Positions 9,440 through 64,000 of a stretch of 64,000 nucleotides of DNA are shown piece after piece. Location of the stretch: contig RSEE01000044.1 of assembly GCA_003971905.1 (NCBI GenBank), forward strand, positions 1-64,000, in the 5' to 3' direction. The position numbers and the translations under genes were made by a program. Numbering within the stretch: position 1 is the stretch's first letter; every line of letters begins with the position of its first letter. This DNA comes from Moniliella sp. 'wahieum'. Taxonomy: Eukaryota. The notes under the pieces were generated by a model, which was not told the DNA's origin, searched no databases, and was given only the letters and a program-made list of their open reading frames with translations.

Positions 9440-11790
9440 GTTCAACCTGATTAATGATTACGCGTTACGATTAGGCCTGCATGAACAAGGCCTTAAGGCT
9501 TAGGCCCCTATAAAAGCGCTAAGCGCGTACAACCTGTTTATTAGCGCGCGCGCGTTTAGCTCTCCTCCCATTCTTCTGACGGCAGGTTGGGCCGCAGATT
9601 CGACTGTGCATCCACGGTGCCCCAGTCTTACAACAATCGCTTTGGCTATATACCACCAGGCACCCGAAAAAGCGATTGGCTGCGGCGGGGCAAAAAGAGG
9701 CAGGCCCAGGGTCCAAGGAAGAAAAGGACGGGGCATGATGCATGATGTGCATGATGCATGATGCATGATATATGACGCCTGACCGGTGACCTATGTACGT
9801 GGCCAGGGAGTTATACGGATCTTTCCAAAAGTGTGTGCTTGCCTCCTTCTTTTGGCGGCATCCGACGTTGTCGGCGAAGGGGCAGCTTACGAGCGCATTT
9901 TCAGGAATGCCAGCGAACCAATGCTGAACGTTCAAGTTGAACGTTCAGTTGAACGTTGAACGTTGAACGTTGAACCCTTGAACCTTGAACCTTGAACCTT
10001 GAACCTTGAACCTTGAACCGTGAAGAGCTTGAAGGTGGAGAAGTGTTGAATCAACGTTGACGTTGACGACGTTGAACGTGAAGTTGACGTTGACGACGTT
10101 GAACGTGAAGTTGACGTTGAACCAACGTTGAATCAACGCATGAACCATTGCATGCATGAGCTCGATGAGATCGATGAACGACGAGATCAATGATCAATTG
10201 AACACCACGTATCACACATCCATTCAATCCTCGCCTGGTCTATCCTTGATCGTGATCGTTATCAGGGTGCAGGGGAGAGTGGTCAGTTTGAGACCCGCCA
10301 TCGGGAAAATAGAGTGCTGCCCCTTTGCTGCGTGGGACGGGGTGCAGTCTCTGCAGGAACAGAGGTGGAGGGGCGGAATGCGGCAGAGGGCGGCACAGAA
10401 GGCTGCAGAGCTGCACCGTCCGCAATGTGTATCAGGCCAATTAATAATTGGCCCTCCGTTCGGAGGACCGATTCGGACCAAACCCGCTCATGGACAAGTC
10501 GGGCAAGTCCGGGAAGTCCGGGCTAGCAGTACCGTATCTGCATGCGCACCCTGCCGCCCATCCTCTCCTTCCGGCCTTAGCGCTTAGCGAGCTCGCGCTC
10601 ATCTACAAATTCATAACGCAGACCCCTTTTACTTACGTAAAATTACACAAGCATGCCACCTGGCACGTTTCACCCGGCGCGTTCCAGGCGGGCGCAGCCA
10701 GGCGGATGCACATGGGTGATAAATTCCGCCCGAGGCGTAGTGGTGAATACTATTCCGCTCTCCACGTGGAACGGTGGACCGGTGGCTACGGTGGCGACGG
10801 GGGAGCGGTGGCTAAGGTGGCGAGCAAGCACAAAGCACACCAAGCTGGGGCGAAGCCCCAGCTGACCGGGCCGTAGGCCCGGTGGTCTTCTAGTTCTCTG
10901 AAAACGCACTATCAGTGAGAGGGAAAGCCAGTGTGGCACCATACATGATGCATGATGCATGATGGGGTCGCAGTCTGAGAGCGAATAGTGCAGCTCATGA
11001 TGCATGACCGGTGACCGGTGACCTGAGGCCTGAGGGCCTGATGATGCAGATGATGGGCCTGACGCGCTGACGGCTCGATGATCGATGTTGGCCTCGAGGG
11101 GCCTGTTGCATCACATGTTAGGGCATGGAACAGGGGGCACAGGATTAGCGCAGGGCGCAAGGAAGGAGGATACTAGATCATCGATGTTAGATATTAAATT
11201 TAGGCATTCTGCTGGGCCTTAAACTTAAAGCTTAAGCTGCCAGCATATCATGATGCATGACATTCAAAGTATATAACTTGTAGCTCTTGCAGTATGATTC
11301 TACGCTACACCCATCATGCATCGCTGTCACATGCGTCACATACCAGATCACACAGATTTGATTAGGCTCTGAGATCTGACCCTCGGCCTGAGACTATCTC
11401 AGATCTCTGAGAATTGAATATTGAAGCTATTGAATTTCTTGAAGATACGTGGGACGCTTTGACGATCAATTGGGTTAACGCCAAGTTGACTATAGATGGT
11501 CGATTTCGATGCGACGCAATTATGCATGACACGATGGATTCAAGAAAGCGTGATGCGCATGTGACTTGTCATAGATGTCATGCATCATGCGCATCATGCG
11601 ACACATGTGAACCGCATGCCCCCAAGAAGAAAATACGAGGGGAGTGTTCCCGTCTGCAGTGGTTGGTGAGCTCACCGGTCGCCTAGTAACCCAGTAGCGG
11701 GCGGGTGACTAGTAGCCAGTCACATGCAAGTCACAGTCACTAGTAACTAGTAACTAGTAACCTGTGACCCGATGACCTCACCGAAGGGAC
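9440..11790. promoter_or_regulatory. Long divergent LTA4H/PMA1 intergenic region packed with 7-bp-periodic palindromic arrays
   Basis: (TGCATGA)n 9734-9770 and 10943-10962; (TTGAACG/C)n 9925-10020; (TGACCGG) and TGAGGCC ~11005-11040; (TAACTAG)n 11737-11760. Confidence 0.75.
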
Positions 11791-12216
11791 AGCCGCGTGC
11801 GTCTTGTTAGTCTGCCGCGTAGAAGCGCACGGGCCGTGCGACACTGGCGCCCGCTGCAGGCCGATCGAACGAACGTGCAGTAGAGTTCGTCGGCAATGCG
11901 AAGAGCGCTTCCGTGCCTGATCCAACGCTGGCAGCACGGGGGCAGTTGCTGGTCCCTCGCACTAGCCCCCACGCGACACCGGCGGCGCTCATCCACTCAC
12001 TGGCACACTGACGTCGTGCCCACCCAAACAACGGATGTAGTTGCTCAAGGCAAGAATGTTGCCGTGCTTATAAGCCCACCGTCTCCGCCAGATTTGGGCG
12101 GACGTCTCTCTCCCGCCACCCCGACTACCCCCGCCCCCCCACCACCGCCGCGCCCTGCCGTCCGGCCGCGCTCCCCGCCCGCCTCCCACCCACCCCGCTC
12201 CGCAGGCATTCCGACC

Positions 12217-15193
12217 ATGTCTGACGAGCACCCCAAGGGCTCCTACGGGGGCCAAGTTAACGACGAGTACGCCTCGCTTCTTGACTTCATCAAGGCCCAG
12301 AAGGCTGCCAACGCCGACGAGGGCGAAAACAACGACATCCAGATCGTGCGTAAGCGCGAATTCCTCCGTCCCTGGAAGGTGCGCGAGATTCGTGTCAACA
12401 AGGATGGTGAGCAGGAGACGGTCGCTCCCAAGGTTCCTTCTAGCTGGTACGTGTCTCCCTTTCTCTGCTCGTTCCGGACTTCATGTTAACCGATGCATAT
12501 TTTCTCTAGGCTCGAGACCTCGATGCAGCAGGGTGTTCCGACTCGGACGTCCAAACCGCCGCGCTCAGTTCGGCTACAACGAGCTTGAGGCTCCCTCGGA
12601 GAACCTCTTCCTCAAGTTCCTCGGTTTCTTCAAGGGTCCTATTCTTTACGTGATGGAGTTGGCCGCTGCTCTCGCTGGTGGTCTGCGTGACTGGATTGAT
12701 CTTGGTGTCATTTGTGGTATTCTGGCCCTTAACGCTTTCGTCGGTTGGTACCAAGAGAAGCAAGCTGGTGACATTGTCGCCCAGCTGAAGGCTGGTATGC
12801 TCTTCGCGCCTTTCGTTGTCCGTAATGGTCAGGAGGTTGAAATTGGGCCCGTGAAGTCGTCCCCGGTGACATTGTTATTGTCCAGGACGGTCAGACCGTT
12901 CCTTGCGATGGCCGCCTGCTTGCCGACTACGCCGACAAGGACGGATCTCAGGCTGCTGCCATTCTCGAGAAGGCTCGTGCTACTGCCCACGGTGACGACG
13001 ATGACGAAGGTGTCGACAAAGGCCCTGCTATCATTGCCTGCGACCAGTCGGCCATTATGGCGAGTCGCTTGCCGTTGACAAGCACATCGGTGACACTGTC
13101 TTCTACACCACTGGCTGCAAGCGCGGGAAGGGTTTCGTGCTCTGCACGGACATTGCCAAGCAGACTTTCGTCGGCCGCATGCTGCCCTTGTGCTCGGCGG
13201 TGAGTCGCAGGGTCACTTCCAAAAGGTCATGGACTCGATCGGTACCGCTCTTTTGGTTCTTGTCATGGCCTTCGTCGTTGGCTTCTGGATTTCGGGCTTC
13301 TTCCGCCACACGGGTATTGCTGAGCCCAAGGAGAACAACTTGCTCACCTACACCCTGATCTTCCTCGTTGTCGGTGTGCCTGTCGGTCTTCCTTGCGTTA
13401 CCACCACCATATGGCTGTCGGTGCCGCTTACCTTGCCAAGCGCCAGGCCATTGTGCAAAAGCTTACCGCCATTGAGTCGCTTGCTGGTGTCGATGTGCTC
13501 TGCTCTGACAAGACGGTACCCTTACAGCCAACAAGCTTTCGATTCACGAGCCCTTCACTCGGGGTGTTGACGTTAACTACATGATGGCCGTTGCTGCCCT
13601 CGCTTCGTCGCACAACGTTCAGTCTCTTGACCCCATTGACAAGGTTACCATCTCGACTCTGAAGGACTACCCCGGTGCCCAGGAGGAGCTCGCCTCGGGC
13701 TGGATCACCACCGCTTCACTCCCTTCGACCCGTGTCCAAGCGATCACTGCCGAGGTCGAGAAGGACGGCAAGCAGTACATTGCCGCCAAGGGTGCCCCCA
13801 ATGCTATTCTTAAGCTCTGCCAGCCTGACCTGAGCAGGCCGCCCAGTACCGCAAGGTTTCGGGTGACTTTGCCTCGCGTGGTTTCCGTTCGCTCGGTGTC
13901 CATCAACGATGGCGAGTGGCACCTCCTTGGTCTCCTGCCTATGTTTGACCCTCCTCGCTCGGACACGGCTGCTACCATTGCCGAGGCCCAGAACTTGGTA
14001 TCGCTGTCAAGATGCTTACGGGTGACGCTGTCGCTATTGCCAAGGAGACTTGCAAGATGCTTTCGCTCGGCACCAAGGTGTACGACTCGCAGCGCCTGAT
14101 TGGATCCGGTGGTCTCGCCGGCTCGGCTATTCACGACTTCATTGAGGCTGCCGACGGTTTCGCCGAGGTGTTCCCTGAGCACAAGTACAGGTCGTCGAGA
14201 TGCGCAGCACCGTGGCCATCTTGTTGCCATGACTGGTGACGGTGTCAACGACGCTCCCTCGCTCAAGAAGGCTGACTGTGGTATTGCTGTGGAGGGTGCC
14301 TCGGACGCTGCCCGCTCGGCTGCCGACGTTGTGTTCCTGGACGAGGGTCTCTCGACCATCATCACCTCGATCAAGGTTGCCCGCCAGATTTTCCACCGTA
14401 TGAAGGCTTACATTCATACCGTATCTCGCTGTGTCTCCACCTCGAGATCTACCTCCTTCTGTCGATCTGCATTCGTGACGAGGTGATCCGCGCCGACCTG
14501 ATTGTCTTATTGCTCTCTTTGCCGACTTGGCGACCATTGCCATTGCGTACGACAATGCCCCCGCTGCCAAGGAGCCTGTCGAGTGGCAATTGCCCAAGAT
14601 TTGGGTCATCTCGACCATCCTCGGTGCTTTGCTTGCTGCTGGCACCTGGATCGTCCGTGGCACCCTGTTCCTTCCCGACGGTGGTATTGTCCAGAACTTC
14701 GGTAACCTGCAGCTTATTCTCTTCCTTGAGGTTTCGCTTACGGAGAACTGGCTTATCTTTGTCACCCGTCTTGGATCGGGTACTTCGGACGAGAACACCA
14801 TCCCTTCGTGGGAGCTGGTGGGTGCCATTCTTGGTGTTGATGCCCTTGCCACTCTCTTCTGTCGTTTGGCTGGCTCGGTGGCCCCATTGCCCGCTACATC
14901 CACTCGCCCGTTTGCGCCACAACAAGCACAACTGGACCGATGTGGTTACCGTTGTGCGCGTTTGGGCCTACTCGATTGGTGTGACTATCATTATCACGGT
15001 GGTGTACTATGTGCTGAACAAGCTCGAGTGGATCAACCGTATGGGCCGCCGCGTTCGCTCGACCAAGAACGAGGTGCTGGAAGACTTCTTCACCAACTTG
15101 CAGCGTCTCACTGTCGTTCACGAGAAGTCGGAGGAGGGTGAGCCCGACATCTACTCGTTCGCCACCCGTCTCGAGGTGGACGACGATGAGTAA
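12217..15193 (+). CDS. PMA1: Plasma-membrane H+-ATPase (P3A P-type ATPase)
   Basis: [19 protein letters not shown](GTLT), [39 protein letters not shown]. Intron 12447-12509. Many 1-nt indels. Confidence 0.97.
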
Positions 15194-20021: not shown

Positions 20022-20796
20022 GGGGGTGGCGGGGGACACGATGGTGGCAATCGCGAGGAGGAGGCAGGCAGGGCGGGCGGAGCAAGGGGCAAAGCAAAAA
20101 GGAGCAAGTCACGCCCGCGAAATGGACGCGTCTCCGCCGCCCTCCGCACCAGGCCAGTTTGCTGCAGGAGGCTGCCTGGGGCAGCTGCGTCGCCCGCCCG
20201 ACGCGTGCGGTGCTCCCCGTTGCCGCTTATCCAAGCTACGCCAATGGCCCAGAGGAGTCAAGCGGTCCTGACCAGTCAGCGGTCCTGGGCCAGTAGATTA
20301 GTGGTGGCCGGTCAAGGTTCAAAGTTGAAGCTTCAACTTTCAACGTGCACTTCATTTGAAATGTGAACGTTCACGCTCACGTCGGGCATGTTGGGATCTG
20401 GGACGCGTGGGAGTGGCGTTGGGCGGCGGGGAGTTTCTCTGGGATCCGGGATCGGTGAGGGGTGGTTGATGATCGGCAGGCGGGGTGAAAGTAGATTTGG
20501 CGGGCACTGCCCCAACGCCAGGGGAGACTTGTCCCGCATCAGGGCGCAAGGGCAGCATTCATATTCCCCGCCAACCACCAGAATGCGGCGTGAGGCCTGA
20601 GGGCAGTCTGTCAAGTGCACCCTGATCTTCGGCTGTGATGCATGTGACATGCGACACGTGATATGCGAAGCGGGGCCTTTGGCTAGGACTACGCATTGCT
20701 GCGGTACGCCCTGCTGTTAGGTGGGAGAGGGCCAGATGCGGACCACAAGGAGCAGGGCAAGCCCACCGGCTCCCATCTGCGCCCATCCATCCCGCC

Positions 20797-22695: not shown

Positions 22696-23485
22696 GTTGC
22701 TACGCTATTTGGCTTGCTCTATCCACTTGTTTTTGCTATTTTGCCACACTCATTTGTGCCTACTCTCTCGTTTTGTCAGTTGCCTGTCGCTTGCTATTGC
22801 ACGGATGGTCTTAGTTTGAATCGATGAATCTCAAACGTACCAAACAACCTTGTGGGTTAGTTCCTTAGGCCCTATTGGTAAAAGGCTACTTATAGACTGG
22901 AATATGAGTTTTCGTGCGTAAGTTTCTCTTCCGATATTCTTCCCGGGGGGGTTTCCATGCCATATGCATTCGCTTTAAAGTCAGTCGGCCGCTCTTAAAG
23001 TCGTATTCACCATTCATGCCGCACGTAGTACTGTGCCCCCCCTCGAAAATCATTTGGCATGTGGTAAGGAAAGCGTGCCGAGGGAGTCTGTCGGGATCCA
23101 GGTGGTCAGGATGCATAGTCGCGTCGATGATTGATCGTACGCTCAGTCCTAGAGTCTCAGCCCATCCGTCCTGCGCGGGTGCCAGGGTACGATGCATGAT
23201 GCATGATGCATGATACCAGCCAATTAGTGAGGCGAACGGGCAGTGGGCATGGAGATTCGGCTGCAGGCACCCCCGCAGAGGGGCAGTGCGAAGCACGATC
23301 GGCTATCATATTCATCTGCAGCTATCAGCGCATCAGCACTCTGAGATCTGAGGCTCAGTCGCCAACCAGTTTCAAGCGTAGCTCTTAAGCGCGGGCTGAG
23401 CTGCTAGCGACGCGTCGCGTCTCCATCTCCCATCCCCCCCCACCATCACGCAAGAACCAAGCCGCAGGCGAACGCCACGACAAAC

Positions 23486-25609
23486 ATGACAGCCGCTTTT
23501 GAAGCGTGGCGCTCGCCTGCCCCCGCGGCCAACCTTCGCTCCTCACCTTTGCCCAATCATCCCTCCTCTCCTGCGCCGCAACCCTCCGCTGTGCGCACGA
23601 GCAGCACCGCCGACCCATTCAGCGCTGCGTCCAAGGCTCCCCCTCATGCACTCCCTCTTTTTGCTAAGCATTCCCACACGCCAAGCACCCTGCGCCCATG
23701 GACGCGGTTGACGCCGATGACGCCTTGCGAGGCATTTTCCATGATTCGGATGGCATATCGGACCATCCTCGCCCCCCTCACTCCTCCGATGAATCACCCG
23801 AGTTCAGTAGGCTGGATCTCTCCCTCTCGAACCCCAGCTCACCTCTCCCCCCTGATTCGCCCGCGGTTGGTCATCGACGTACCTTTAGCAGAGCATTCAG
23901 TCGCGTCCCATCCCACCTTATGAGGCCTTGGGGCCCATGGGATCGCCCCCCTCGTATTCTAAGCGGGACGTCCTTTCTCCCCACACTCATCTTTCTCTCC
24001 CTCCCGCCCCCGCGCCAGAAGGCACGTCTGAGCTACCATTCAACCACGCGGCCCTTGTCTCGCAGCCTGCCTGAGGCCGGTACCCATCTAATTTTCTTCC
24101 TGGTCCCGGGTTTCCCACATCCAATCCAGGTCCAAGCGTAGACCCGGAGTGGAATGTCGTCCGTCATGCCGTGACCCAAGCATTCGACCAAGTACGACCG
24201 CTGGTGCACCTCGACAAACAAGGCCTCACCTATCTCCCCCCCTGATTGCTGATCTGGGGATTTCGTTGCGTTAGCCTCAGAGCCGAGAAGGGCCTGCCCC
24301 GCAACGTGGGAGGGCGTGCCCCGTTGGGCTCGCAGGGCATCTGAGGCAGTGCCTCCGGCTCATTGAACGGGGGAGACCCCTCGGGGGTGCAGATCTTTCT
24401 GGGCATGAACCCACTACGCAAATTACCCAGTGCCTTGTTTAGTATTTCCAATCTCTCGGTCCCTCTCTCCGCGCCGTTGGCCTCTCTGCGCTCCCCCCCG
24501 CTGTGGGCACTTTGATCAATCTGCGCGAATTGAACATTGGTTGTAATGAACTGGTAAATCCCTTCTCCCCCAACGCCCCCCTAAGGAGTGAAAACTGACA
24601 CTTTGAATCAGACCTCCCTTCCCGCTGAGATACAAGCGCTGAAGCTTGATACGCTGTTTATCTGCCCAACCCATTCCGTGCGCCCCCCGAAAGGTGGGGG
24701 CAAGCGAGTGCTATCACCCCTTGTGACTCGAGGAAACGGTATCCCCTCTTGAAAGATCTCTGCATTCGGCGTATCCTGGCCTACCAGACGGAGGAACACT
24801 ATTATCCACCCTTGAGTCTTCGGCACTGAGCGACATGGCAGAGGAGAAGATGGGACGTACGGCTTTTGGCTCGTCTGGACGCCGCCCGACGCAGCATGAC
24901 GTCCAGCTGGGCATCGAGGCCATTGCCTCCGGAAGAACGTGATGGAGAGTCCCCTCGGGCCGACGGGACCACTGCCTACGCTCGATGGGCCCGCAGCATT
25001 TCCCACCCCACCTCGCTGGCCAGTCTGCTGGCCAAGGACGATGCCGGGCTCAATCCCTGGTTCAATCGCTGTCCTGGGCGCAGCCATTGGTCCGTCCGAA
25101 TTCCCACGGAAGATTGGCCCCAGGGGACCTATGTTGGCCCCCGATTCCTGGACGCGGTGGAGGAACGGATGGAATGGGTGGCGAGCGTTGCAGGTGTTAC
25201 GATCGTTGGTGGGGGAGGCTGGATCGGACCCTGGAGCTGGTTCGGGCGCCGCCGCAGTCGGCGGCGAGGGTGCCGCTGCTGTGGCGGGGGTGTGGGCGGG
25301 GGTCTGGCGTTTTTGCAGGAGGAGGCGTAACTGGGCTCGGACTGCTGGGGGCTGCTGGGGCGGGGCATGTGTATTTTGTTGTATCCAGTTTGGAGAGGAG
25401 AAATGCCTTGCATTCTGCATGCCTGGGGCCTGATACGGTGGGTGGCGCGTGTTACGCGTTACAAAAGACCGGCAGTCACTGGCACGCACTGCCGGGCAGC
25501 GGGGGTCGGGTGGCGTGCCTGATGGGCGCGATGTGTGATGGATGACCTGGACAGGGCCGGGGGTGGGAAGGTCGTGCTCATCGATCGCGATAGCCGATCA
25601 AGCACGTAA
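23486..25609 (+). CDS. Leucine-rich-repeat protein
   Basis: LRR-like segments such as LDKQGLTYLP, FLGMNPLRKLPSALFSISNLS, LINLRELNIGCNEL and LPAEIQALKL; intron near 24553-24611. Ends approximate. Confidence 0.65.
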
Positions 25610-27942: not shown

Positions 27943-28328
27943 CGATGGGAAATGTATGGACAGAGTGCAAAAGGAACGAAAACGGATCACATCTTTTGCC
28001 CATATATCGCCAAGCCAGTTGGCTTGCCCAACTCACTTTTGTTTCCACCGTTCCCTTTGGCTGCTAAAAGAGCGGGGTCAGCGTCATGCCATTCTGCCAA
28101 AAAGAGCCCTTTTGGAGAGCAGGGCGTACGCACATGTGAAGATGAGTTGTGCCCAACCCCAGTCTCAGCGCTCAGCTCGTCATGGACAAACATGAGAAAA
28201 TGGATGGGCCACGGATGAGGGAATGGTCTGATCGCTTGGCATCGCACCCTGCCCCCATGTATCTGTTAGAATGTCACAGTCAGGATGGTAAGTGTGGCCG
28301 TGTCTTGCTTCGACACCAGGCCGCGACT

Positions 28329-29116
28329 TCAAGCGATACACTCAACCCACACAAGGGCTTTTGCCAGGGCTTCTGTTCCTTCTGTTGATTGGCTTTGGTT
28401 TTTTTGCGGTTGGTCAAGTTGTGGCTGCGTGCCTCGACTGCTTTGGTGTGCGTTGTACATCTTCCTCCTCCCCCTTTTCTTGTTCTTGTTCTTGTTCTTG
28501 TTCTTGTTCTTGTTCTTGTTCTTGTTTTGTTCTGTTCTTGTTCTTGTTCTTGTTCTTCTTGTTTGTTCTTGTTCTTGTTCTTGTTCTTGTTCTTGTTCTT
28601 GTTCTTGTTCTTGTTCTTGTTCTTGTTCTTGTTCTTGTTCTTGTTCTTGTTCTTGTTCTTGTTCTTGTTCTTGTTCTTTCTTGATCATCATCACCACCAT
28701 CAGGATCACCTTCATCTTCATCCTCCTCATCATCATCATCATCTTCCTCTTCTTCCTCTTCGTCTCTGTGCGATTGCGGGAACAACTGCTTCAGCGCATC
28801 GCGCACAGCTGGCAGATTGGCACCGTTGATGTGATGCAGGAGATGGTGCCACGGAGGAAGATAAACGTCGGCACAGAGTCGACGCCAAAGCTGTTGCTCA
28901 CCTCGGGCTGGGCCTCCGCTTCAACCACACCACCAGCAGAGGTGGGCAACGCGCACCAAGTTGTACGATCAATGACTTGATTTCCTGGCAAACAGCGACC
29001 CAGGGAGCGTAAAAGTACAGTAGACTGACCCGTTCCAGGTTGGATGACATGAGGTCCGTGAACTGCGTGGGCGACACAATCTCCACCACGTTGCATGCGC
29101 CTTCTGTTGAGGCCAT
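28329..29116 (-). CDS. Thioredoxin-like domain protein (Grx3/Grx4-type N-terminal domain) with acidic and repeat tail
   Basis: VSLLYFYAPWVAVC..EAEAQPEVSNSFGVDSVPTFIFLRG, then a D/E run and the (AAGAAC)n tract. No CGFS Grx domain found downstream. Confidence 0.65.
28477..28678. repeat. (TTCTTG)n microsatellite, long
   Basis: About 200 bp of hexamer units with a few interruptions. Confidence 0.97.
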
Positions 29117-36028: not shown

Positions 36029-37037
36029 TGTGGGCTGCCGGCGGCTTGGTGACGGGGTGCGGCAGAGGGACGGAGCGAACAACGGAAGAGAACAGGCTTT
36101 GAATATTGAAGCTACTATTGAAGCAGGCTGAGGCGTTGAGGGCGAAACCACATCGAGTCGAAATTGAACATTGCAGCGTGGTCGTTTTGGATGCTTTGAA
36201 ATCATAAGCAAGATAGTTTGAAATTGTAGCATTGCAAGATCGTACTCGATCGAAGCTACTAACTACTCAAGATGCATGATGGATGATGGCACGTGACGGG
36301 ATGCATGATTGGGACCGGGAGGCCGGGGACTGCGGACCAGAGACGGACGTAATGCATAACGGTTGTAACACGTAATCGCGCGTAACGCGTAACCGCGTAG
36401 CCGGCGTAATCAGCGGGGTGTGTGCACCACCATAGTGGACAGTCGTCACGTGCCTGCACAGGGCAGCTGTACCCAGAGCCGCGGGCCGGGTTGCGGGTTG
36501 CGCTTTCCGGTTGCCACCCGGTAAAGTACCGGTACTCGGGTTGTTGATTCCCGGTAGTAAGAAGGTTCCCGTGCGGAGTAAAAGCAATCCCGGACGCTGC
36601 CCCAACCGCGCCTCGCGCCGGCTGCGCCAACCTGCGTCTGCAGGCGCCAGCGCCTTGTCCTGGTGGGGTTAACGTGACGCCTGGGAGGACAGCATTTCAA
36701 GCAGCCAACACACCCATCATGCATCAACATCAAGCCCCACGCACTGGGGATTAGGTCGGTTAGGCATTGACGACCGGGGCCGGCTATCGGGATGCCTTCG
36801 GCCCGGTGTCATTACTCAGTACTCAGCGCCCGGTCTGGTTGCCGCCTCCAAAAGACGGGGAATAAGCTCCGTTGCGGGGCGATGCGCTGTATAGCGTTCA
36901 AGTGCGTTCCGCTATAAAGCAGCCCAGTATCTCACCCCCAAAGCCCTCCTTGTCAACAGCTCCTCCTCCTCGCCTCCATCGGTGCTCTGCCGTGTTCTTG
37001 CCCGCTCTGCTCTCGTGCCCTGCCCCCTCCCTCTGCC

Positions 37038-38968: not shown

Positions 38969-41900
38969 CTAGTCCATGTTGCCCTCGTCGTCGGACGCAA
39001 GCATGTGCGCGTAGTCCTCAGCCGAAGCGAACGTAGACAGGTTCTTGCGCTTCTTGCGTTCGCGCCGGGCCAGTTGGGACTTGGACAGACCTTCAGTCTC
39101 TTCATCCTCTGCTGCTGGGCGCTTCTTGCCAGCCAACTGGGACTTGGCCTCCTCCGCATCATCAAGTCAGCAAAGGGCAAGAGATCCTCCTCGTCTCGAG
39201 CATGTCGTCCCCGTCAGAATCCGAATCCGAGACAGATGAGACACCAGCTTCGAGCGCCTCGTCCTCATCATCATCATCATTCCTCGTCTTCGTCCTGGTC
39301 TGCCGGGCCCTCGACTGCTGGACAGTTGCAATCGCCGTATCGTCCGCCTCTCCCTCGTCGGAGGAGTAGCCGTACATGTCCAAATCGTCATCGTCTTCCG
39401 CAGTCATCCCGGCTTGCTGCAGCTCCTTGGGCAGCGTTCGGCGCATTGCTTTCCACACTTGCTCCTCGTTCATCCCAAGCTCCGAGTCCACGTCCGAATC
39501 ATCCTCCGTTGGACCGGGGCTCCGTGGATGGTGCAGGTGCACGTGCCGCCTTGGTTGTCATGAACCGATGGAAGAAGGCCTGGTCGGGCGCGACCTGATC
39601 GGCGCGTTGCTGAGCAAACGCTGCGCTCCGAACATCCTCTTCCGGAAGCAGCCCTGTACGGCGCAAGTTGACCACCCCCGCGCCCCCGTCCATACCTAAC
39701 CGCAAACTCGCCACCGACGGCTGCATCGCCGAACCGCCCCGGAGCGGGATGACACTCGCCATACCTTCACCTTTGGACTTGGGGTTACGGTAGACGAACC
39801 GATCGAGGAAGTGGTGAGCGTGTGCAGACTCAAGTCCCCATTGGAGTAACCTTAGAACCCTGCAGAAGCTGCCGGGCGTTGAGGGCGACCGAGGGATGGA
39901 AGTGATGCGTGAGCGGGAGAAGCTCCCACCAACACGTTGTCTCGGCCAACGCGTACCGGGGGTCACGCTTCTTGCCGTCATACGTCGCGTGCTTGTGAAT
40001 CGAGGGCAGCGCGGCGGGTGCCTTCTCATCATCGGGATCAGGGGCATCGACAAAGTGCTCCGGCTCCCCGTCTTCGGGATCAGTGAGCATCGCGCTCAAG
40101 CCGGGGACGTGCTTGAGCAGCTCTGAGAGAAGGTAGAGGGCACCACAGATAAAGGACGGGTCCATCCCGGCTACCAGAACCTGAGTGAGACGCTTGACAA
40201 ACGCCTTGGCTCGGTTCGGTTCCGGGTCAGCCTTGATCGCCTTGAAGAGCAGTTGAGGTACATGGTTGCTTGTTAGATGTTGCGAGACGGGGGTCGAGAA
40301 GCGAATCGTAAAGTGTGCGGTAGAAACGGTCGGTCATCGGACCCAAATTCACCGAAAGAGGGCCGCGGTCTTCTTCTCTTGTCCGTGTCGGTCTTAGCCA
40401 GACGAGTTGGAAGAGTAGCTGGAGGGACTGCACTGCCAGCGTCACGACCCAGTATGAGTGACCTTGAAAAGTTGTCTCGACGTGCTTTGTCAAGCAGTTC
40501 CTGCGGTACCGCTGCAAAAGGGAATGCACGGCGCATGCCGGCCAGCAGCGCACTAAGCATCCTCCCATGTGCCTCGGTCGCGGAGAGAGCCGAGACAGCC
40601 TTCACCTTGCCCTTACCCTTACCCTTACCCTTGCCCTTTTTCCCCTTGCTGTCTCGCCGCGGTTCTTATCCTTGGGTTCGTCTTCTTGGCTTGCTCTCAT
40701 CTTGCGGCCTCCTCTTCGGCTCCTCCAGTCCGCCTTGGGCCATGAGTGCATCAAACAACTCAAAGTACAAGCAACCAGGGCTGTGGCCACTGCGGTATCT
40801 TGAGTAGTGAGAACCGTCTGGTTCAAGGTGATCACACCATAGTATTGGGCATGCACGTTTGCCTTGGGTTGCTCGGTTGCTGTGCCCGTTTTTCGCGCCC
40901 TCTGCATCTCTTCCGCCACCTCACGAACGACGATCGCCTTCATAGCCGGTGTGTGGTAAGCAAACTGAGAAGATGAGAGAAATCTTGGCCGCCACGAACG
41001 GTCGGGATCGCCAATCTTGGTAACGCGGAGGCGGAGTACGTTGTGCTCTTGCTCGCCTTGGTCGCGCAAGAGGTGGTAGGCATGCCCCACAGCTGCAATT
41101 CGCACAAAGGGGAGGGGTGTCGTGCATTTGGGCCTCGAGCGCGCGCAGGAAATGGAGGTAAAACTTCTTGAGCTCGTCTTCAAACGCAAACTTGGCCAGA
41201 TGTTGGTCCACCGCCCGCACTACGTCTTTCTTCGTCGACGAAGAAAGCGAGGCAACGAGTGCAAGGTCGGGCTGGTCGCGGAAGTAAAGAAGCTTCCCCC
41301 ACCAAGCCCACCCGGGCTCGCCAGCCAGTCCACAACTGCTCGGGTGGCAGGACCGGACTCGTGCCGGGAGTGCTTGCGCACCATAGCAAACAGCTTGTCC
41401 AGCGTCTCAAGGTTGTGCATGGGGCTCGACTGGATAAGTAGGGTCAATGCAGAAATTCGGTCGGACAACGTGGCACCGCTCTTGCTCTCCCCGTGCCATA
41501 AAGGAGGTCAGAGATGAACCTTGCATCACCTGCTGAGAGCGACCCGAGCGCCCAAGGAAGCAGCCTCCTTGCGCTTCCCAGAGTCTTTCAGCGCATGGAA
41601 AAAGGCCTGATTATCCGCAATGAGTAGCTCCTGTGCCCTCGTGCGCAGCGCGTCAACTTCCTCGTCGACGGCGGGGGGTGACCGTGGCGCCATCCGGCAG
41701 AGGCAGGAGGGGTACCGTAATCCACGAAGCCTGAGGGGGGACAAGTAGCTGTCCAGAGCCGACGCCTCCACGAGTATGGTGGAATGCTGCGAAAAGAGGC
41801 TCCGGCTCGGGAGCGCTCTTGTTCTGATGCGGCTCGCGCTGCCGATCGGCCGGGGGTGCGGAAGGCACTGAGCGCGCGTGGCCGTCGTCGTCAAAAGTGG

Positions 41901-42060: not shown

Positions 42061-42772
42061 GGCTCGGTGGTGGGAGAGAAGAGCACCGAAAAAATTATAT
42101 GTCGCAAAGGAAAATTAGGGATTATGTCATCCACACAGGGTGCCACCACCCGTGAGGATCACCGGTCACCGGTCACCCGAGCTCAGCGCTCCCCGCTTAC
42201 TACCCGCTCACCGGCACCAGCTCCCAAATTAGAATACTTCTCCACTGGATTGCTCCTCGCCTCAATGCGGCCCGGGAGGCAGGGGACCCAGTCGCACACG
42301 CCGTTCATTGGTACGGCCTCGCCAGAATGAGGATAAGCTGCCACCATGAGGCATGGCATCCGATGCCTCTACTTGGGTATATACACCAACTTGGTCAACT
42401 CCCTTGTCTGTTCATGCTGTGGCCTGCCGGGGGCCAGACTCCAAACCGGCATCATCAGCGCCACCACAATGCTCTTTCCAGACGCTCTCATCCAATCCTT
42501 GTAGGGTTCTTCCGATTGTAGCTGATAGAATGGCGCCCACCAGGGAAGTAGGGATGCTTGCAGTGCCTGTTCTGTAACACGCAAATGGGTGTGCGGTTAT
42601 CGATTGGCCTGGCACGATTTTCTCTGGAACAAGGAAGCCGAGGCGAGATGCTAAGAACACAACAGCAGGCAAGGAAGTGGGAAATATGCTCTAGTTTCAA
42701 CCGGCGGGAGGTAGGGGGGTAGGGTGCTCATTTTGGGGGCATCCTGCCTAAATTTTTTCTCTCCCAGGGAGT

Positions 42773-43655: not shown

Positions 43656-44012
43656 CCTCAGGTCTCAGGGGTCGGCGTTGGCGTGGCAGGAGGTGGAGTC
43701 GAGCCAGGACGTTGTGCCTGGGTGGCATCCAGGGCGCGCCTCTGCGGGACTTTTGAGCAGGACTTACCTTAGCTAGGGGGGGGTCACCGCTCACCGGCCG
43801 TCACGCGTCACACCGGCCAGGCAGGACAAGCTCCACGTCGATCCGAGGCAGGCAGTAGACCTGCCACATGCCCCGCGTCAGATGCTCAGATCCGGACTCC
43901 GAGTACCCAGTCTGCGTCCGAAGCCTCCGAAGGCGCGTCGCGTAGCCGCGTGCTGAAATTTCGACCGCTGGCGTCTTCCACCACCACCACTGGCTCGGCC
44001 CCTGCTCGTCCC

Positions 44013-46212: not shown

Positions 46213-47098
46213 GGTGAAGGCGGTGGTGATGGTGGTGGGTTATGCCGTCGAAAGGCATGTGGTACTGGTTTTGACGGCAAAGAAAAATTGGTCCAGGGTC
46301 AATATTCAATTCCGCCTTTAGACTTCAGACCGACCTCCACTTCGCCCAGGTGAGTGAAATTTCAGCTAGGGTAGTTTCAGCGAGGTAGATCCATCGATGA
46401 TTCGCCGGGCTGCCGAAGCCACTGGGCTACTCAATAATTGCATTAACTGCAACGAGTACTAACGTCCTGTTTCCGTACTGAGTTACTGAGTACTTGTGCA
46501 ACACAACCACGTCGTCGCGAATGGGGTTGAACGTTGATGACGTTGATGCGGTTGGGGAGAAGGGACGACACTACCTTGCTCGCGACTCGGACGGTCCTAT
46601 CTTCCTCGTTTAGAGGGATAATCGATCGATAATCGATATTGCGGAATACCCGCATATAACTGGTGGTCACATCGAACACATGTCCGCCGTGGGGATAGAA
46701 ATGTCCCGTTGTCCAGATATTGACTGCCATACCTGTGCAATATCTCTGGGCTGTTGGTGTCAAGTGCAATGTATAGGCGACATTCTGCGCGTCCATAGGG
46801 CAGGCCATTCGGCCACCGAGCATCGTGAAAAAATTTGGCGAAGTTGGCGCCCATTGCCTATTATGGCTGGTTTTCTGTACCTGCGCGACGCAAGCAGGTC
46901 ATGGTCTCAACAGCATAATATACGAGGCATGGCCCCTCTATGGTTCTTGCGTTAATGTCTATGTTCGCCCTCCACCTCTTCCACATACTTTCCGGACAAG
47001 TTAAAGATTGCTACGGTATGCGATTGGTATGCTTTGAATGGGTGGGTGCGCGGCTGCTGGTGGGTTCACACGTTCACAGGCCAGCTTTAGCCAAGTCC

Positions 47099-53765: not shown

Positions 53766-54374
53766 CGGCATCCCACTTTTGAACACTGACTAAGAACGTG
53801 AACGTTGAACGTCGAACAGAGCCTCGGCAACACACTCGCCTCCGCCTCCTCCATTTTATAGCTTCGGACTTGTTTATGCACCCCCTTCTTCTCTGAGAGT
53901 CAAGAATCCATTAATACTGTATCTTAGTTTGGCATGAGCAGGGGAAGAACGCGGATATTAGCAGGGTCCCTGGTGCTTGGAGTTACTCCTTCTCCTCGCA
54001 ATCCTGGCTCGATCGAGCCCCCGATGCAATGCCGTTTCTCGGCATTCCCAACGCGTGACGACTCTTCACATCATCGGTATATCCCTTTTCAAGTGAGCTT
54101 ATTCTGCCCTAGTACCACCGACACCACAAGTCCAAGCGGGCACACATAGGCTCGCCCAATCGCATACCCATTCGCCACGGAGATAACAGCGCTCTGTCTG
54201 CCTCACCGGGTCAATCGACACTGGTTTACGACTCACGGCTTACATGCGTAAAATAGTCTGAATCCCGTGTCCGAGAAGTGAACAGCCCTCATTAGTATAT
54301 TCTACCCACAATTTGGCGCCCATAGCAGATAGACGACCTAATGCATAGTACTTGAGTTTGATCCTCTTCGCATG

Positions 54375-55830: not shown

Positions 55831-55915
55831 GGGCGGATAGCTCAGTTGGTAGAGCGCACGCTTTGCATCCTGGTGCCACTGTGTGAGGTCTGGGGTTCGA
55901 TTCCCTATTCGTCCA
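55831..55915 (+). tRNA. tRNA-Ala(UGC) with 12-nt intron
   Basis: Acceptor GGGCGGA/TTCGTCC with G3:U70, D arm GCTC/GAGC, anticodon TGC at 55864-55866, intron 55868-55879, T loop TTCGATT, T-run just downstream. Confidence 0.92.
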
Positions 55916-56452: not shown

Positions 56453-57219
56453 TTAGAGCGCCTTTTTGGCCGCCTTTGCGAGATGAGCAGAGTACTCCCA
56501 CGAAGGGCGTAGGAGGAGGGGGGATGTTGTTCCACAGGTTGGGCGTGAGGAAACCGTACGTCTTGGACACAGCCTCGAAGGTGGCCTTGATAAAGTTGCC
56601 CATGGTGGCCGTCTGGCCCGAAGACTGGGTGTAGCAGTCGGTCACACCGGCAAGCTGAAGCATGCGCTTCGACGCAGGAGCGGCAACAATGCCCGTACCG
56701 CGGGGGGCGGGAACGAGACGGCACATGACCGAGGCAGTCTTACCGCTCACCTTCATGGGGACCGTGTGGGGCTCACCAAGAGCAGCACCCCAGTACCCAC
56801 GGCGAACCGGAATAACGGAGAGCTTAGCCAGATTGATGGCAGCGCGGATGGCGGTGGCAACCTCCTTGGCGCACTTGACACCAGGCCCAAGTGACCGTCC
56901 GAGTCACCAACGGCAACGAACGCCTTAAAACGGGTACGCTGACCAGCACGGGTCTGCTTCTGCACAGGGTGGATCTTCATCACCTCATCCTTGAGCTTGG
57001 GCAGGAGCAGGTCCACCACCTGGTACTCTTTGATGGGGAGGGAAAAGAGGTAGATTCCTCGATCGACTTGATCTTGCCGTCCTTGACGAGGCGGCCAACG
57101 GAGGTGACGGGCACCCATTCCTCCTTCTCGCCGCCACGGGCACCACGACGGCCACGACGGCCACGGCCACCACGGTCACGGCCAAAACCACCACGTCCAC
57201 GAGGAGCTGCGTCAGCCAT
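56453..57219 (-). CDS. RPS2: 40S ribosomal protein S2 (uS5)
   Basis: RGG-rich N-terminus, [47 protein letters not shown]. Confidence 0.97.
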
Positions 57220-57577
57220 GTTGGTTGCTTGGATGGGGAAGTCTCGGGTACCAAGCAGCAGCAAACCATAGCAATGACAAGGGCGCCTGCAAACAAATAG
57301 GGTTAGTGCCGCAGCTTTTTTCGGTTCCACGGCCCAAACAAAGTGGGGTGTGGGGTAGGATGGGTGATGATCGATGCATGATATTTGATGGTGATGCATG
57401 ATGCTGATCTGGTCGATATTGGGAACTGCCGTCAACCGGTTACCGATTATCGATTGCCGGTACCGATAATCGATAATCCCGAGTCAGCCCGGGCAATCAA
57501 TGATCAATGATCCCAACCAACCATCTCAATCCAATCGGGGAGGGTGGCCTGCCCTCTCTTCTATCCCCCTCCTGTCT

Positions 57578-59041: not shown

Positions 59042-59182
59042 TCTGCATTACTGTTGCATGGCCACCCTTCCCACTTGAGTATCATAGGGTGCCATCATGA
59101 TGTTAATGATAGACCTTAGCAGGGACATCATGCATCAATACAAACGCATACCTCAATAGGACTCCTGACGAATGGGTATAAG

Positions 59183-60119: not shown

Positions 60120-60487
60120 GTCAGGCAATTGACGACGCTGGTGGCAAAGTGGAGGCGATTGGGGGCAGTTGGCGGCGATGGTCTGTGGTAAATTCAAAGA
60201 TTGAGGGATGCACAAAAACAACTTTGAAATATGGATATTCTGAGCCTCCAGAATTATCGAGCCACTGGTAACAACAACAAGTATCACACGTCCGCGTTAC
60301 TACCAGAGAGCATAGTACGCCAGGGTTTCTGTTAACCAGCGGCAGCCTTTTACCACCTGTCCCTTCCTTTTATGTGTGTCTCCATGAAAAGGTATGTAAC
60401 CTGTGGACATATCATGTGAAGTGCAATCATACAAAAGGGACACGAAGACGAAAAGTACAAATACTCGATCATGACTCCGGGACAGAG

Positions 60488-61470
60488 CTACCTAGCCCCC
60501 CCAGCTCCCCCGGAACGGCAAGCATCACGCCTGGATCCCACGTCGTCGTTTGGAGGCGCCAGAGCCCTTGTCGGAACTCGTGCCTCATGGCCTTGATGAA
60601 AGACCATGGGTCGCGCGTGCGGTTCATCTGCTCCACCAGTGCATGAATCGTACCCCCAGGCAGGGGTGGATGAGTGGAGAGTACGCTGTACGGCTTCCCT
60701 TTGCCGCCGAGGTCGAGGAGGCAAGTCGATTGGAGTAAAATCGTCGGGATTGAGAAGGTAGAAAATGATTTTGAGTTGGGCTGCAGCGTGGTCAGTACCG
60801 ATACACCAGGAACAACGAGTGGACGTACAAGAGTGTTTCGTAGGCTGGATCTCGATGCCAAGCAGGTCTTGGAGACGTTGATGCTCCCAAGGTGTTTTGG
60901 ACCGCTGGAGATGAATGGTATCGCGTACCATCTCGAGATGTGTCCGTTTCCTACTGGTTTGGGTCGTGACTGCTGCTAGCTGTGCGCGCAAATCATCAGC
61001 CTTGGAGCTCAAACTGGCCTGGGTGGCACGGAGGTGAGCGAGCGTGTCACGCTCCTCGGCGTCGGCTGCTTTTTGAGCACTGATCGTTTCCCACAGTGCA
61101 GACTGAGCCTCCTTTGCATCTGTCACCTCCCCCTCAGCCGCTCGCACTTCGTCCCGCGTTAACGCCAACTGGGTCTCGTGCGCCTCCCGTTCCGCCTCGG
61201 CACGAGAACAGGTGCTGCTCACGGCCGCTTTGAAATGGACTAGAAATCGGTCCATTTGGTCAAAGAGCGAACCAAAATCCAGAGGAACGGGGCGAATTGC
61301 CAGCTCTTCTTCCTCCTCCATACGCGACCCAGAGATTGGCAGGGAGTGGGGCATACAGCGACGCCGGGGCCGGGGCCAGGGAGGGGCGCACCCGCCGTCC
61401 CGCCGGTTGCACCCGGCGCACAGGTGCAGTACTCTTTCTCGTCCGCTTGTGGGGTGGCGGTGTCTGCCAT
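60488..61470 (-). CDS. SPC25: Ndc80-complex kinetochore subunit Spc25-like
   Basis: Coiled coil followed by LLGIEIQP..LKIIFYLL..CLLDL..YSVLSTHPPLP..LVEQMN.TRD..SFIKAMR (RWD-like head). Confidence 0.7.
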
Positions 61471-61949
61471 AATGCTGGTGATGCTGGTGGTGGCGTTGGT
61501 GGTGGCTAATGCAGAGAGATGGTTCAGAAAACAACGGGGAGGTGTGGGACGCTGCTCCTGACTTTTGCTGCGGCCGGGAATGTTGAGTGATGCTCTCGCT
61601 GTTGAGATGGGACGCGCTAGAACGGGGGCAGTGTGCCGAGTCATGCGCTCTGCAATTTCCACGGGGGTCAGCTTATTTCAATGTTTAAAAGCCGCTCACG
61701 CTATATCGAAATCCCTGGGCCCTGTCAGCTTTGAATATTAAGGCGCCAGTGGATTAAAATCCACTACCCACGTTGGTGGGGCTGATGATCCAGCTGTGCC
61801 TCTTCGCCACATCCTGAGGGACGCGCCGATACCTACTTGTTTTGCAGAAAACAGCCCCGGCAACCAAGTTCCTCACACACAGTCCCGCCCCGCTGCCGCA
61901 ACAGCGCGCGATGGAGAATCATCCCCACAGGACACAGGTCAGGCAGTGA

Positions 61950-63470
61950 TCGCCCCCTACGTAAATGCCCATACTGCCTCCACTGCTCTCAGCAGGAGGA
62001 CAACCAGCGCTCTTGGCAGTCGTAGAATACGGGCGAGCTTTGTCCCCTTGGGAGACTCAGGTTGCCTGCCAAGTCAATGTCAAGCGCGAAGCCAACCTGC
62101 TCATGGCAATTACTACTACGATTCGCTCTGCTACCTGTCCGCCCGCAAGGCTCTCATATGAGTCGCGCTTCCCAATTTGAGCCACACCCTCAAAAGCTCG
62201 TTTCAGCAAGAGGCGCAAGAGAGATAGCCGCGTTCATGCCGATGATCAGAAGGGACAATGCTCCGGAAACTCGTGACCAAGCTCTGTGCTCCCACTCGTT
62301 CCACATCATCACGCAAGTGGGACACAGCCAGGTATGGCGAGTTGTTCTCTTGCGATAAAAGTCAGGAGAAAATATGAGCACTTAACAGGAGACTAACCAA
62401 AAAGGCATGGTCAATGGATGACGCGCGCCGTCTTCATTGAGCGCGACATCCTCAGTGCCACCGTACCCCGTGGTTAGTGAAATCATGCACGCCTTCCATG
62501 ACCAGGAGATTGTGTGTCTCGCCACGGAGTAATATGTCCCTGACGCGGTTTCGATACCTTCTGCAAGTCCGGCTTGCAACGCGAGCACCATGCCCACTTC
62601 TATGGAACGGAGATGTTTGTTGCGGTCCATGAGCTGCATGCTGGAGCATGTTCCCCCCAGCCTCAAGCCGGTTCCTCGTTCGACGCCTCGGGCTACTTCA
62701 ACTTGACGGACTTGGACTGGCTTCGGGTTCTAGGACAAACTCCAGTCGAGTTGCCTCATTATGGAAAAGTCTACACGGAGTGATGGATACCGACGGCGTC
62801 TACTGCACTCCGCTCCCTGTTCCAGGCGTGTCAAGAGCATATGTTGAAACCCCCAATTCCATTCCGGCTTGCACCATTATACGGCGACTGAGATTATATT
62901 CTACCGGTCACTTATGGCATTCGCGTTGATTAATGAGTACGGATCATCGAGATCATTGACGAACACTATATAGAGAGAGGCGGCATCCACTACCTCGCAG
63001 ACTTCCCACCCTTTTCGGGTCACCTAACATCGATATGTGGGCAAGTCTGTAAAATTGGAAGCGTGTGTGCTGCATCAGTCCGTGTAATACATGGTACACC
63101 GCTTCGGCAGGAGTTGCACTTCAAAACTTCTCACCAATGTTGAATGGGATTGTGGGAAGGCACAGCCCGGGGGAAGAGAGGCTCGAATAGGATTCGAACC
63201 CATGTCATCGCCTATTGGCCAGGGGTGCGTTACCACTACGCTAGTATCGAGCCGGGATAAGAGCAGCTGCACACAGGATCACAGTCTAACAGTGATATAG
63301 TTGCACGATAGGTTGTGTCCCTCTGTTATGAAGGGACGAAGGAACCACGCATCATCACCAAAGGGGGCGCAGAGGGGAGATATCGACACCTGGTATTAGA
63401 AAGCGCAATCAGAGAAATGAGATGACAGCCTCGTCTCTCTCCTCTTTTGAGCAAGTGGAATGTGAGCGAT
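61950..63470 (+). pseudogene. DBF2: Decayed Dbf2/Sid2-type NDR kinase pseudogene
   Basis: Colinear fragments: NVKREAN, YYYDSLCYLSARK, MLRKLVTKL, FHIITQVGH..YGELF, VFIERDIL, PWLVK, HAFHDQ..LATE*YVP, HFYGTEMFVAVHELH, SLKP (no HRD), DASGYFNLTD, FPPFSG, WASL*NWKRV. In-frame stops and lost catalytic motifs. Confidence 0.85.
63179..63253 (-). pseudogene. Aberrant tRNA-like element (pseudo-tRNA or SINE-like)
   Basis: Perfect acceptor GGCTCGA/TCGAGCC, D arm GCGT/ACGC, B box GGTTCGAATCC. Aberrant 5-nt linker, a C-C mismatch in the anticodon stem, and loop GGCCAAT lacking U33. Confidence 0.7.
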
Positions 63471-64000
63471 GGGGGAGGGCATGTGGCGGAAGCCAAACCG
63501 TGCTGATGTCCTGAGCGGCTGGCGACGCTATTAACCAGATGAGATCGATGAGAAGGGAAAGCGTGGTGAGCGCCGGTGAGCGGCTGAGCCTGCTGAGCTC
63601 ACCAGCGCTCACCCGCGCGAAATCTTCTCCCTGTGCACGCAGGCTTCGTAAACGATAATCGATAATCGTAGAGACGCATAATACCGTGCGTAGGCTTTGG
63701 GTGGCGGATAATCGATAACAACGCTCAGTCACTCATAACGATGTAACAAGAAGCTCTATTGTTAACGGCGTTCTTACAGCGACGCCCTGCGACACCTGGC
63801 GGAAGGGGGAATGGGAAGATCGGAGGATGGGTGCATTATAGAGGGGTGTGTTGGCTGTATCCCTGCTTTTGCATGGCATTCATCGATCATCGATCATCGA
63901 TCATCGGGATAGTACACTTGGCCAGGCTCCGAGCAGAGCACGCAGTAGCACGCAGCAGCAGACACAGGCGCCGTGGGGAGCACCAGGAGCAACTGCTTAC

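Follow-up and report, generated by a model that had tools for sequence, protein, structure and literature searches.

What are the short palindromic repeats of 7-bp period that recur along a 64-kb stretch of DNA from Moniliella sp. 'wahieum' (contig RSEE01000044.1, positions 1 to 64,000, referred to here as the window), protein-binding sites kept by selection or the products of a mutational process? The initial annotation had described tandem 7-mers that differ in sequence and obey one rule, a 6-bp A....T palindrome plus one spacer base. All of its listed examples were recovered within a few bases of where it had placed them, two of them in part, position 36271 holding ATGCAT-GA without the 5' TGA and position 57370 reading ATCGATGCATGA. 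The word tested here was the 10-mer composed of T-N-A, a 4-nt palindrome and an identical T-N-A (TNA-pal4-TNA), and occurrences in phase, i.e., in 7-bp steps, were counted as one chain at one place. All counts rest on this one 64-kb window and on one metagenome scan. Our results confirmed the palindromic 7-base repeat, whose frequency lies far above what chance would give.

Within the window the word was counted 52 times; these occurrences form 40 chains in phase, of which 32 are single, 4 double and 4 triple. The expected number was 2.15±1.5 in 40 dinucleotide shuffles, the control which the initial annotation had proposed, 2.34±1.44 with a maximum of 8 in 100 shuffles of 500-bp blocks, and 2.0 and 4.4 under third-order and fifth-order Markov models, respectively. 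When the large spacer at 9172-12053 was left out, 28 words in 24 chains were counted against 2.0 expected. Flanks were also varied in their first and third base, and the excess of T.A was not approached in the window by any of the 15 remaining classes; the largest of them, A.G, had 12 cases against 3.5 expected because the ATGCATG arrays are also read in a shifted register. Where a T.A triplet is repeated at lag 7, half of the cases have a palindromic core, compared with 6% expected. Cores of 2, 4, 6, 8 and 10 nt gave 8, 52, 4, 1 and 0 palindromic cases against 7.8, 2.6, 0.33, 0.17 and 0.07 expected, with a small period-9 tail beside the dominant period 7, e.g., TCA-TGCGCA-TCA at 11585. A window-wide lag-7 autocorrelation was absent (0.2676, below the 0.2923 of lag 6), and 6-bp palindromes as a class were not enriched window-wide (965 versus 981±29). 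What stands out is a local signal, tied to this form of word.

Exact arrays were defined as runs of at least 2p+3 bases, p being the period. Ten exact arrays of period 7 were found, 17-44 bp long and matching rows of Tandem Repeats Finder, and nine of the ten contain a 6-bp palindrome (binomial 2e-8). In the window there was no exact array at periods 8, 10, 11 and 12 and one at period 9, and none of the 11 arrays of period 6 was palindromic. A....T palindromes of the same core stand 7 bp apart in 13 pairs and 6 or 8 bp apart in none; T....A, G....C and C....G palindromes gave no same-core pair at distance 7. The cores draw on 13 of the 16 possible palindromic 4-mers, all but AATT, CATG and TATA, and each core stands between T-N-A triplets at 7-bp spacing, in agreement with the earlier proposal that period and symmetry rather than sequence are conserved. 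Different cores also share a phase: A....T pairs of unlike core number 3 at a distance of 7 and 4 at a distance of 14, with 0.2 expected in each case, and mixed-core chains read TGA-TGCA TGA-TGCA TGA-TATA TGA-CGCC TGA-CCGG TGA at 9752 and TGA-TGCA TGA-CCGG TGA-CCGG TGA at 10998. A segmental duplication linking these chains (at 9757 and 10996) was rejected, the alignment being without similarity outside the repeats. The perfect arrays are 19-28 bp long, and variant units adjoin perfect ones (ACCT by ACGT, TTAC by GTAC and ACGA by TCGA). The sole non-palindromic array of period 7, CCTTGAA x6, is one substitution away from the adjoining AACGTTG unit. Though the arrays themselves are head-to-tail tandem repeats, 32 of the 40 places hold fewer than 2.3 copies.

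The anatomy of the unit narrows down how it could be made. Among 65 words in which N was left free on the two sides, N was the same in 52, complementary in 7 and other in 6, and while all three outer features (T, A and the identical N) together give 52 words, any two of the three give 13-16. The identical N on both sides therefore argues for copying rather than for a protein that reads T and A and is indifferent to N, and because the core bases pair whatever they are, templating by base pairing is favoured over recognition by one protein. Exact lag-7 runs (n=42) have their mode at 12 bp (15 of 42) and just 3 of 42 measure 10 bp, whereas a hard 10-mer edge would leave 75% unextended per side and a stop at 10 bp in more than half. 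Extension by at least 2 nt occurs on exactly one side in 30 of the 42 runs, on both sides in 6 and on neither in 6 (Fisher p=0.012). Thus the modal object is a direct repeat of 5 nt (D5), the reverse complement of 2 nt and D5 again, and a 12-mer, TNAxy-y'x'-TNAxy (or the reverse complement of this), appears to be the basic unit; in it a 5-nt direct repeat surrounds the 2-nt reverse complement of the two adjoining bases. In a general scan of such forms, D4+3, D5+2 and D6+1, all of period 7, were 8- to 16-fold over expectation, and forms of period 8-10 were mostly not enriched, with the exception of D6+2 (form A, 5 versus 0.6); cases without T.A flanks were few and at background level. In 23 words oriented by their extended side, N was T in 6, G in 9, C in 8 and A in none (p~0.001 for the absence of A), and this small asymmetry suggests that the orientation of the unit is real. 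Birth by duplicating a 7-bp odd palindrome, which would give a 14-mer, was rejected, since only 6 of the 42 runs extend by at least 2 nt on both sides. Readings of T-N-A as a stop codon, a branch site or a bZIP half-site were also rejected because they require neither a palindromic core nor an identical N.

The initial annotation had noticed clustering 5' of genes, especially in divergent promoters, and scarcity in coding and convergent regions; this held roughly, on a crude gene map made from Pfam matches of all 271 stop-to-stop open reading frames (ORFs) of at least 100 aa. About 25 of the 40 chains lie in four divergent spacers, namely LTA4H(-)/ATPase(+) at 9172-12053, beta-lactamase-like(-)/AMP-binding(+), Rer1(-)/unknown(+) and RPS2(-)/enoyl-CoA hydratase(+). 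Four more are in tandem spacers on the 5' side of the gene, two are in convergent spacers (28165 and 59128), and nine have neighbours that are not callable. By a codon-usage score, coding-like DNA makes up 50.4% of the window and contains 4 of the 40 chains, all of borderline score (binomial 7e-8), and the other 36 are in non-coding-like DNA. The score is moderate, covering 83% of the Pfam-ORF positions and 14% of two spacers, and a first, weak codon-based map had marked just 28% of the window as coding, which makes the region classes approximate. The depletion of words in coding DNA is real; its size is approximate because the score is only moderate and because the word brings stop codons on one strand.

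How could such a unit arise? We consider it quite possible, though short of an even chance, that a recurrent error of local copying gave rise to the arrays, with slippage after a templated insertion of 7 bp, and that they are not a family of protein-binding sites. From the anatomy and the counts of the units in the sequence, we infer an insertion event, a break or stall that starts it and slippage that follows it. A break or replication stall would occur at T-N-A in gene-free, mostly 5' DNA, and the repair would add 7 bases, 5 of them copied directly and 2 as the reverse complement of the adjoining bases. TNAxy would become TNAxy-y'x'-TNAxy, and the palindrome AxyyxT of 6 bp would arise in a single event together with the 7-bp direct repeat. 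The 2-nt inverted copy may come from an opened hairpin-capped end, in the manner of P nucleotides, or from a brief switch of the polymerase to the opposite strand; the opening of a hairpin-capped DNA end leaves a loop-free inverted copy that abuts its template. Because the product has two 5-nt repeats, slippage between them in 7-bp steps would be possible, and the tract could grow or shrink by 7 bp, as is standard for microsatellites, which would give arrays with as many as 4 perfect units (6 in one derived array). Point mutation produces the variant units seen beside perfect ones, and further events at the TNA on the outside of a unit already present would produce in-phase chains with differing palindromic cores. 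In form the arrays are tandem repeats, and in behaviour they come closest to microsatellites that a special birth event has seeded.

Several observations weigh against a copying error. The birth of the unit is read from anatomy in one 64-kb window with no birth event observed, and the 12-mer is derived from 42 runs in this single window. Base-pairing models leave the strict T at +1 and A at +3 unexplained and predict G.C, C.G and A.T flanks too, none of which is enriched. Places with one-off words only are near chance (60 versus 49±6.7), as compared to 35 places with perfect units against 2.0 expected. Such a scarcity of one-off relics means that the units are young, quickly removed or kept intact by selection, the last of which would favour a function; the excess is about 43 one-off and about 50 perfect words at the level of hits and 11 and 33 at the level of places, figures that do not separate youth, deletion and selection. 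The tract lengths of 19, 19, 21, 22, 23, 24, 27 and 28 bp are not all in 5-nt phase, and no candidate nuclease or transposase was found by Pfam among the 271 ORFs of the window.

Known systems resemble parts of this mechanism. The layout of P nucleotides, a 1-4-nt inverted copy abutting its template beside a direct duplication, is that of the modal 12-mer. P nucleotides are found at V(D)J coding joints and in donor-site repair of hAT, Transib and MULE elements (PMC5499845). They form a 2-3-nt loop-free inverted copy beside a short direct duplication, which is exactly the geometry of the 12-mer. The units of the window differ from them in the T-N-A site rule, the 5-bp duplication and the one-sided inverted copy, and no hairpin-forming enzyme was found in the window. 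Replication template-switch mutations (PMC8794818, PMC8604942) form perfect inverted repeats in one event and would explain arbitrary pairing without selection, but the events described are looped hairpin stems at scattered sites and not a 7-bp periodic T-N-A word. A template-switching repeat generator was one of three mechanisms offered by the initial annotation and fits best among them, with the strict T and A left unexplained. In Fusarium mitochondrial DNA, palindromically arranged (A)n and (T)n microsatellites of the form (A)7-12-TATA-(T)9-11 have been described, and their authors suspect mobility (PMC7218506). These blocks are likewise fungal, intergenic and variable in length and combine a repeat with a palindrome; they are without the 7-bp period, the TNA rule and the variable cores. 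Full-text searches, with most subscription journals outside their reach, returned no description of a heptad rule of T-N-A plus palindrome in any fungus. A search on the Ustilago maydis intergenic 7-mers, which the initial annotation had named as a possibly related case, gave unrelated papers.

That the arrays are instead a selected promoter element seems to us rather unlikely. They would be kept for what they do, e.g., nucleosome exclusion, the marking of bidirectional promoters or binding of a two-fold symmetric protein, which in the protein version would contact T and A on both strands every 7 bp irrespective of the core. The strong bias to gene-free DNA speaks for it (about 25 of 40 chains divergent, 2 convergent, 4 coding-like), as do the perfect units that far outnumber isolated one-off relics (35 versus 2.0 as against 60 versus 49), the invariance of T-N-A while the remainder varies, and an enrichment of 10-bp palindromes TGA-core-TCA (6 versus 0.7). 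However, the bias in location is equally expected from mutation confined to open or unconstrained DNA. For a reader of T-N-A the two Ns could just as well differ, and the factor reading T-N-A every 7 bp that the initial annotation had suggested leaves both the identity of N (52 versus 7 + 6) and the arbitrary core pairing unexplained. To our knowledge, no protein demands self-complementarity of arbitrary bases. An array for a dimeric transcription factor would also be expected to have a conserved core and two-fold symmetry of the whole site, but 13 of 16 cores occur with only T and A fixed, and 52 words have an identical N as against 7 with a complementary one. Nor do fold energies help this explanation for most stretches. 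Two of nine array stretches, 9920-9980 with true 10-bp palindromes and 11730-11770 with a flanking 7-bp inverted repeat, are predicted to fold better than all 200 shuffles (z -5.3 and -3.8), and the other seven have z between -0.3 and -1.3, not clearly better than shuffles, so that a stable hairpin or cruciform, the remaining proposal of the initial annotation, is weakly supported. As a whole, the initial interpretation was partly supported.

Ordinary microsatellites, arising by slippage alone in units that slip more because their slipped strands can pair with themselves, with no special birth event, are an unlikely source, more so than a selected element. The perfect head-to-tail tracts of varying length agree with slippage, and pairing between array strands is possible with a single mismatch in every 7 bases. 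A metagenome scan with three ATGCATG units plus TGA gave at least 120 loci, 80 of them with flanks and 611 kb in total, so that arrays of at least three ATGCATG units occur in at least 120 unrelated contigs and the ATGCATG array is common in nature. On the other hand, 32 of the 40 places are never-expanded single units that already obey the full rule, of which chance would give about 2 per window. Palindromes of the G....C, C....G and T....A types would pair as well or better and yet gave no same-core pair at 7, and the in-phase chains switch core by 2-4 bases while staying palindromic. Among the matches listed in the scan, many ATGCATG contigs were rich in non-palindromic heptamer arrays (82 arrays in 611 kb), words with other cores were near expectation in most loci, and other exact period-7 arrays contained a 6-bp palindrome in 5 of 82 cases versus 9 of 10 here (Fisher 2e-8); thus the multi-core palindrome rule is no general property of heptamer repeats. 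Bacterial heptamer simple sequence repeats (STRR-type repeats and the heptamers of Xanthomonas and Nostoc; PMC4692102) share the 7-bp period, the intergenic site, variable head-to-tail arrays and probable growth by slippage, and have one or a few fixed non-palindromic units per genome, whereas many units under one symmetry rule, mostly single, are found here.

The same scan hints that the rule reaches beyond this lineage and that the process may be older than the lineage. Among the matches listed, a few eukaryote-looking contigs (L031, L061, L034 and L014) showed the rule faintly. L031 has TAATCGATAA, TCAGCGCTCA and TCATCGATCA inside 300 bp and is agaricomycete-like, its RhoGAP piece sharing 74% identity with a protein of Mycena chlorophos. 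In L061, TGA-CGCG-TGA-ACGT-TGA stands in phase; this contig has no named match and generic TPR clusters only. L034 and L014 contain further matches to the word rule. Pfam on 40 ORFs from 7 loci returned TPR and RhoGAP only.

Transposon excision scars are the least probable explanation and very unlikely in our judgement. A cut-and-paste element that duplicates TNA, the target of PIF/Harbinger elements (TNA/TWA), would leave two bases of each inverted end, and repeat visits would build chains. The order of a 3-nt direct repeat, a 4-nt palindrome and a 3-nt direct repeat, present in 52 words, is like the footprints of Tc1/mariner-type elements, which are likewise born perfect and tend to 5' regions, and scars would account for the 3+4 period, for an N that is identical, for chains that keep their phase while the cores differ, and for the 5' bias. 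Against them, 13 fillers instead of a constant one per family would call for roughly as many families of elements, each with its own terminal dinucleotides. No transposase domain was found among the 271 ORFs of at least 100 aa, and no dispersed repeat family and no element in the window. A 3-bp duplication does not predict the one-sided 2-nt extension (30 of 42 runs), and the arrays of identical units are a further difference from footprints. Stowaway/Mariner excision is reported to leave a small duplication and short element-end sequences (PMC4561436), which agrees with scars; the same paper contrasts these footprints with excision of the Tourist family and reports precise repair of mPing sites, which speaks against them.

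The window has a G+C content of 50-63%, and its reading frames are short and broken up, the longest having 420 aa. Eukaryotic domains found by Pfam are divided across adjoining frames and include STRIP/Far11, PPP4R2, leukotriene-A4 (LTA4) hydrolase, P-type ATPase, RPA1, a Zn2Cys6/ERT1 factor, cyclophilin, Rer1, EMG1, RPS2, Bud13 and Spc25. At 74% identity, a protein of Tilletiaria anomala is the best named match of the LTA4-hydrolase exon, with other Ustilaginomycotina next, and two further proteins match the exon at 97% and 88%. The short interrupted frames, the split domains and these matches therefore indicate an intron-rich, smut-related basidiomycete (Ustilaginomycotina). Rfam and tRNA scans of the window found one tRNA only, distant from the arrays (85 nt, 55831-55915, + strand); ARAGORN did not name its anticodon, and the gene therefore probably carries an intron. 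An array of (TTCTTG), about 34 copies with 94% matches at 28477-28678, lies within overlapping minus-strand ORFs that have weak low-complexity acidic matches only, with a thioredoxin-like piece adjoining, and probably encodes a long two-residue repeat.

The units are distributed along the window as follows; no strand is assigned to them, and the single units come mostly from exact lag-7 runs. Between the STRIP-like (+) and PPP4R2-like (+) genes lies the single unit CATAATGCATAA (TAA-TGCA-TAA, 2863-2874). The 2.9-kb LTA4-hydrolase/P-type ATPase spacer (9172-12053) is unusually long for a compact fungal genome and holds 24 of the 52 words together with other short repeats (GGTGGCTA-like and CAAGTCCGGG-like units); no Pfam-matching ORF and no Rfam match were found in it. 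The first units listed in it are two abutting ones, TGA-TTAA-TGA and TTA-CGCG-TTA (9448-9469), and a composite chain at 9733-9791, in which an ATGCATG array (22-bp exact run, 9748-9769), TGA-TATA, TGA-CGCC and TGA-CCGG-TGA are in phase. AACGTT units at 9925-9975 consist of two TGAACGTTCA 10-bp palindromes and a 28-bp exact AACGTTG array (9948-9975), and are followed by the exact, non-palindromic CCTTGAA x6 array (9976-10019) and by a 27-bp unit of ACGT-containing 6-7-mers in 2.4 copies of 100% identity (10056-10120). Further along are TTA-GCGC-TTA (10576-10589), a 21-bp exact ATGCATG array (10944-10964), the composite chain TGA-TGCA TGA-CCGG TGA-CCGG TGA with TGA-GGCC-TGA after it (10996-11035), and the single units TAA-AGCT-TAA (11224-11235), TGA-TGCA-TGA (11249-11260), TGA-GATC-TGA (11368-11379) and TGA-ATAT-TGA (11413-11425). 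The last in the spacer are TCA-TGCA-TCA continuing into the period-9 variant TCA-TGCGCA-TCA, an 8-bp palindrome plus one base (11578-11600), and a 23-bp exact ACTAGTA array (11739-11761) between a GTCACAG/CTGTGAC inverted repeat.

TGA-GGCC-TGA (20591-20602) lies 5' of the RPA1-like gene (-), as does a 20-bp perfect palindrome, AAAGTTGAAGCTTCAACTTT (20321-20340), which with one of 22 bp (41226-41247, within the coding-like part of the CBF/Mak21-like gene) is the longest in the window. The symmetric 10-mer TGA-core-TCA is found at 9925-9947, 20326, 20364, 25792 and 46355, and the opposite form, TCA-core-TGA, is at chance level (1 versus 1.0). A 24-bp exact ATGCATG array (23191-23214), TGA-GATC-TGA (23340-23352) and the bare 10-mer TGA-AGCT-TGA (24640-24649) are followed by TTA-CGCG-TTA (25451-25462) 5' of the Zn-cluster gene (+) and by TCA-GCGC-TCA (28164-28176) in a convergent spacer. 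Between 36 and 37 kb are TGA-ATAT-TGA (36099-36110), the bare 10-mer TAA-TGCA-TAA (36350-36359), TAA-CGCG-TAA with a 4-nt left extension (36379-36393), TCA-TGCA-TCA (36715-36726) and, about 100 bp 5' of the AMP-binding gene (+), TCA-GTAC-TCA (36813-36826). The ATAT-core units of two divergent spacers, at 11413-11435 and 36099-36125, have a longer stretch TGAATATTGAAGCTA..TTGAA in common, perhaps as a genuine shared site, perhaps by chance. A 19-bp exact ACCGGTC array (42159-42177) lies 5' of the CBF/Mak21-like gene (-) and TCA-CGCG-TCA (43799-43811) 5' of the Rer1 gene (-). Then come TCA-ATAT-TCA (46299-46310), TGA-ACGT-TGA (46526-46537), a period-11 variant TAA-TCGATCGA-TAA followed by ATCGAT (46617-46637) and, 5' of the Ytp1-like gene (-), TGA-ACGT-TGA with a 4-nt right extension (53799-53812). 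In the RPS2(-)/enoyl-CoA hydratase(+) divergent spacer are TGA-TGCA-TGA (57392-57404) and TAA-TCGA-TAA as a 15-bp run (57464-57478). The RPS2 promoter also has a telomere-repeat-like AGGGTTAG motif at 57297-57312, between the start codon and the arrays; in many fungi, motifs of this kind are Tbf1-type sites of ribosomal-protein promoters. The 17-bp exact ATCAATG array at 57496-57512, whose palindrome TGATCA is of the T....A type, is an exception to the A....T rule. TCA-TGCA-TCA (59126-59137) is in a convergent spacer, and the last units of the window are the bare 10-mer TGA-TTAA-TGA (62927-62936), TAA-TCGA-TAA as a 16-bp run (63653-63668) and as a single unit (63707-63718), and a 27-bp exact ATCGATC array (63880-63906).

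The strongest form of the copying-error reading, which we regard as unlikely though of wide consequence, is that basidiomycetes have an endogenous site-specific mutational process, in which a nuclease or a domesticated transposase would cut at T-N-A in open promoter DNA, repair would leave a 5-bp duplication with a 2-nt hairpin-derived inverted copy, and slippage would multiply the palindrome. If this is true, new palindromes of all sequences would be added to promoters without pause, as sites on which dimeric transcription factors could draw. Such factors bind palindromes, and a palindrome generator confined to 5' regions would therefore bear on the origin of regulatory sites. If the rule holds genome-wide, it would be a clean, countable signature of a process writing short palindromes into promoters and a rare eukaryotic repeat class defined by symmetry and period instead of sequence, and it could point to unrecognised nuclease, transposase or polymerase behaviour in basidiomycetes. 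Even as neutral scars, the units would still serve as hypervariable markers and call for caution in motif discovery in such genomes. There is a real chance that these short tandem repeats mark an undescribed mutational process.

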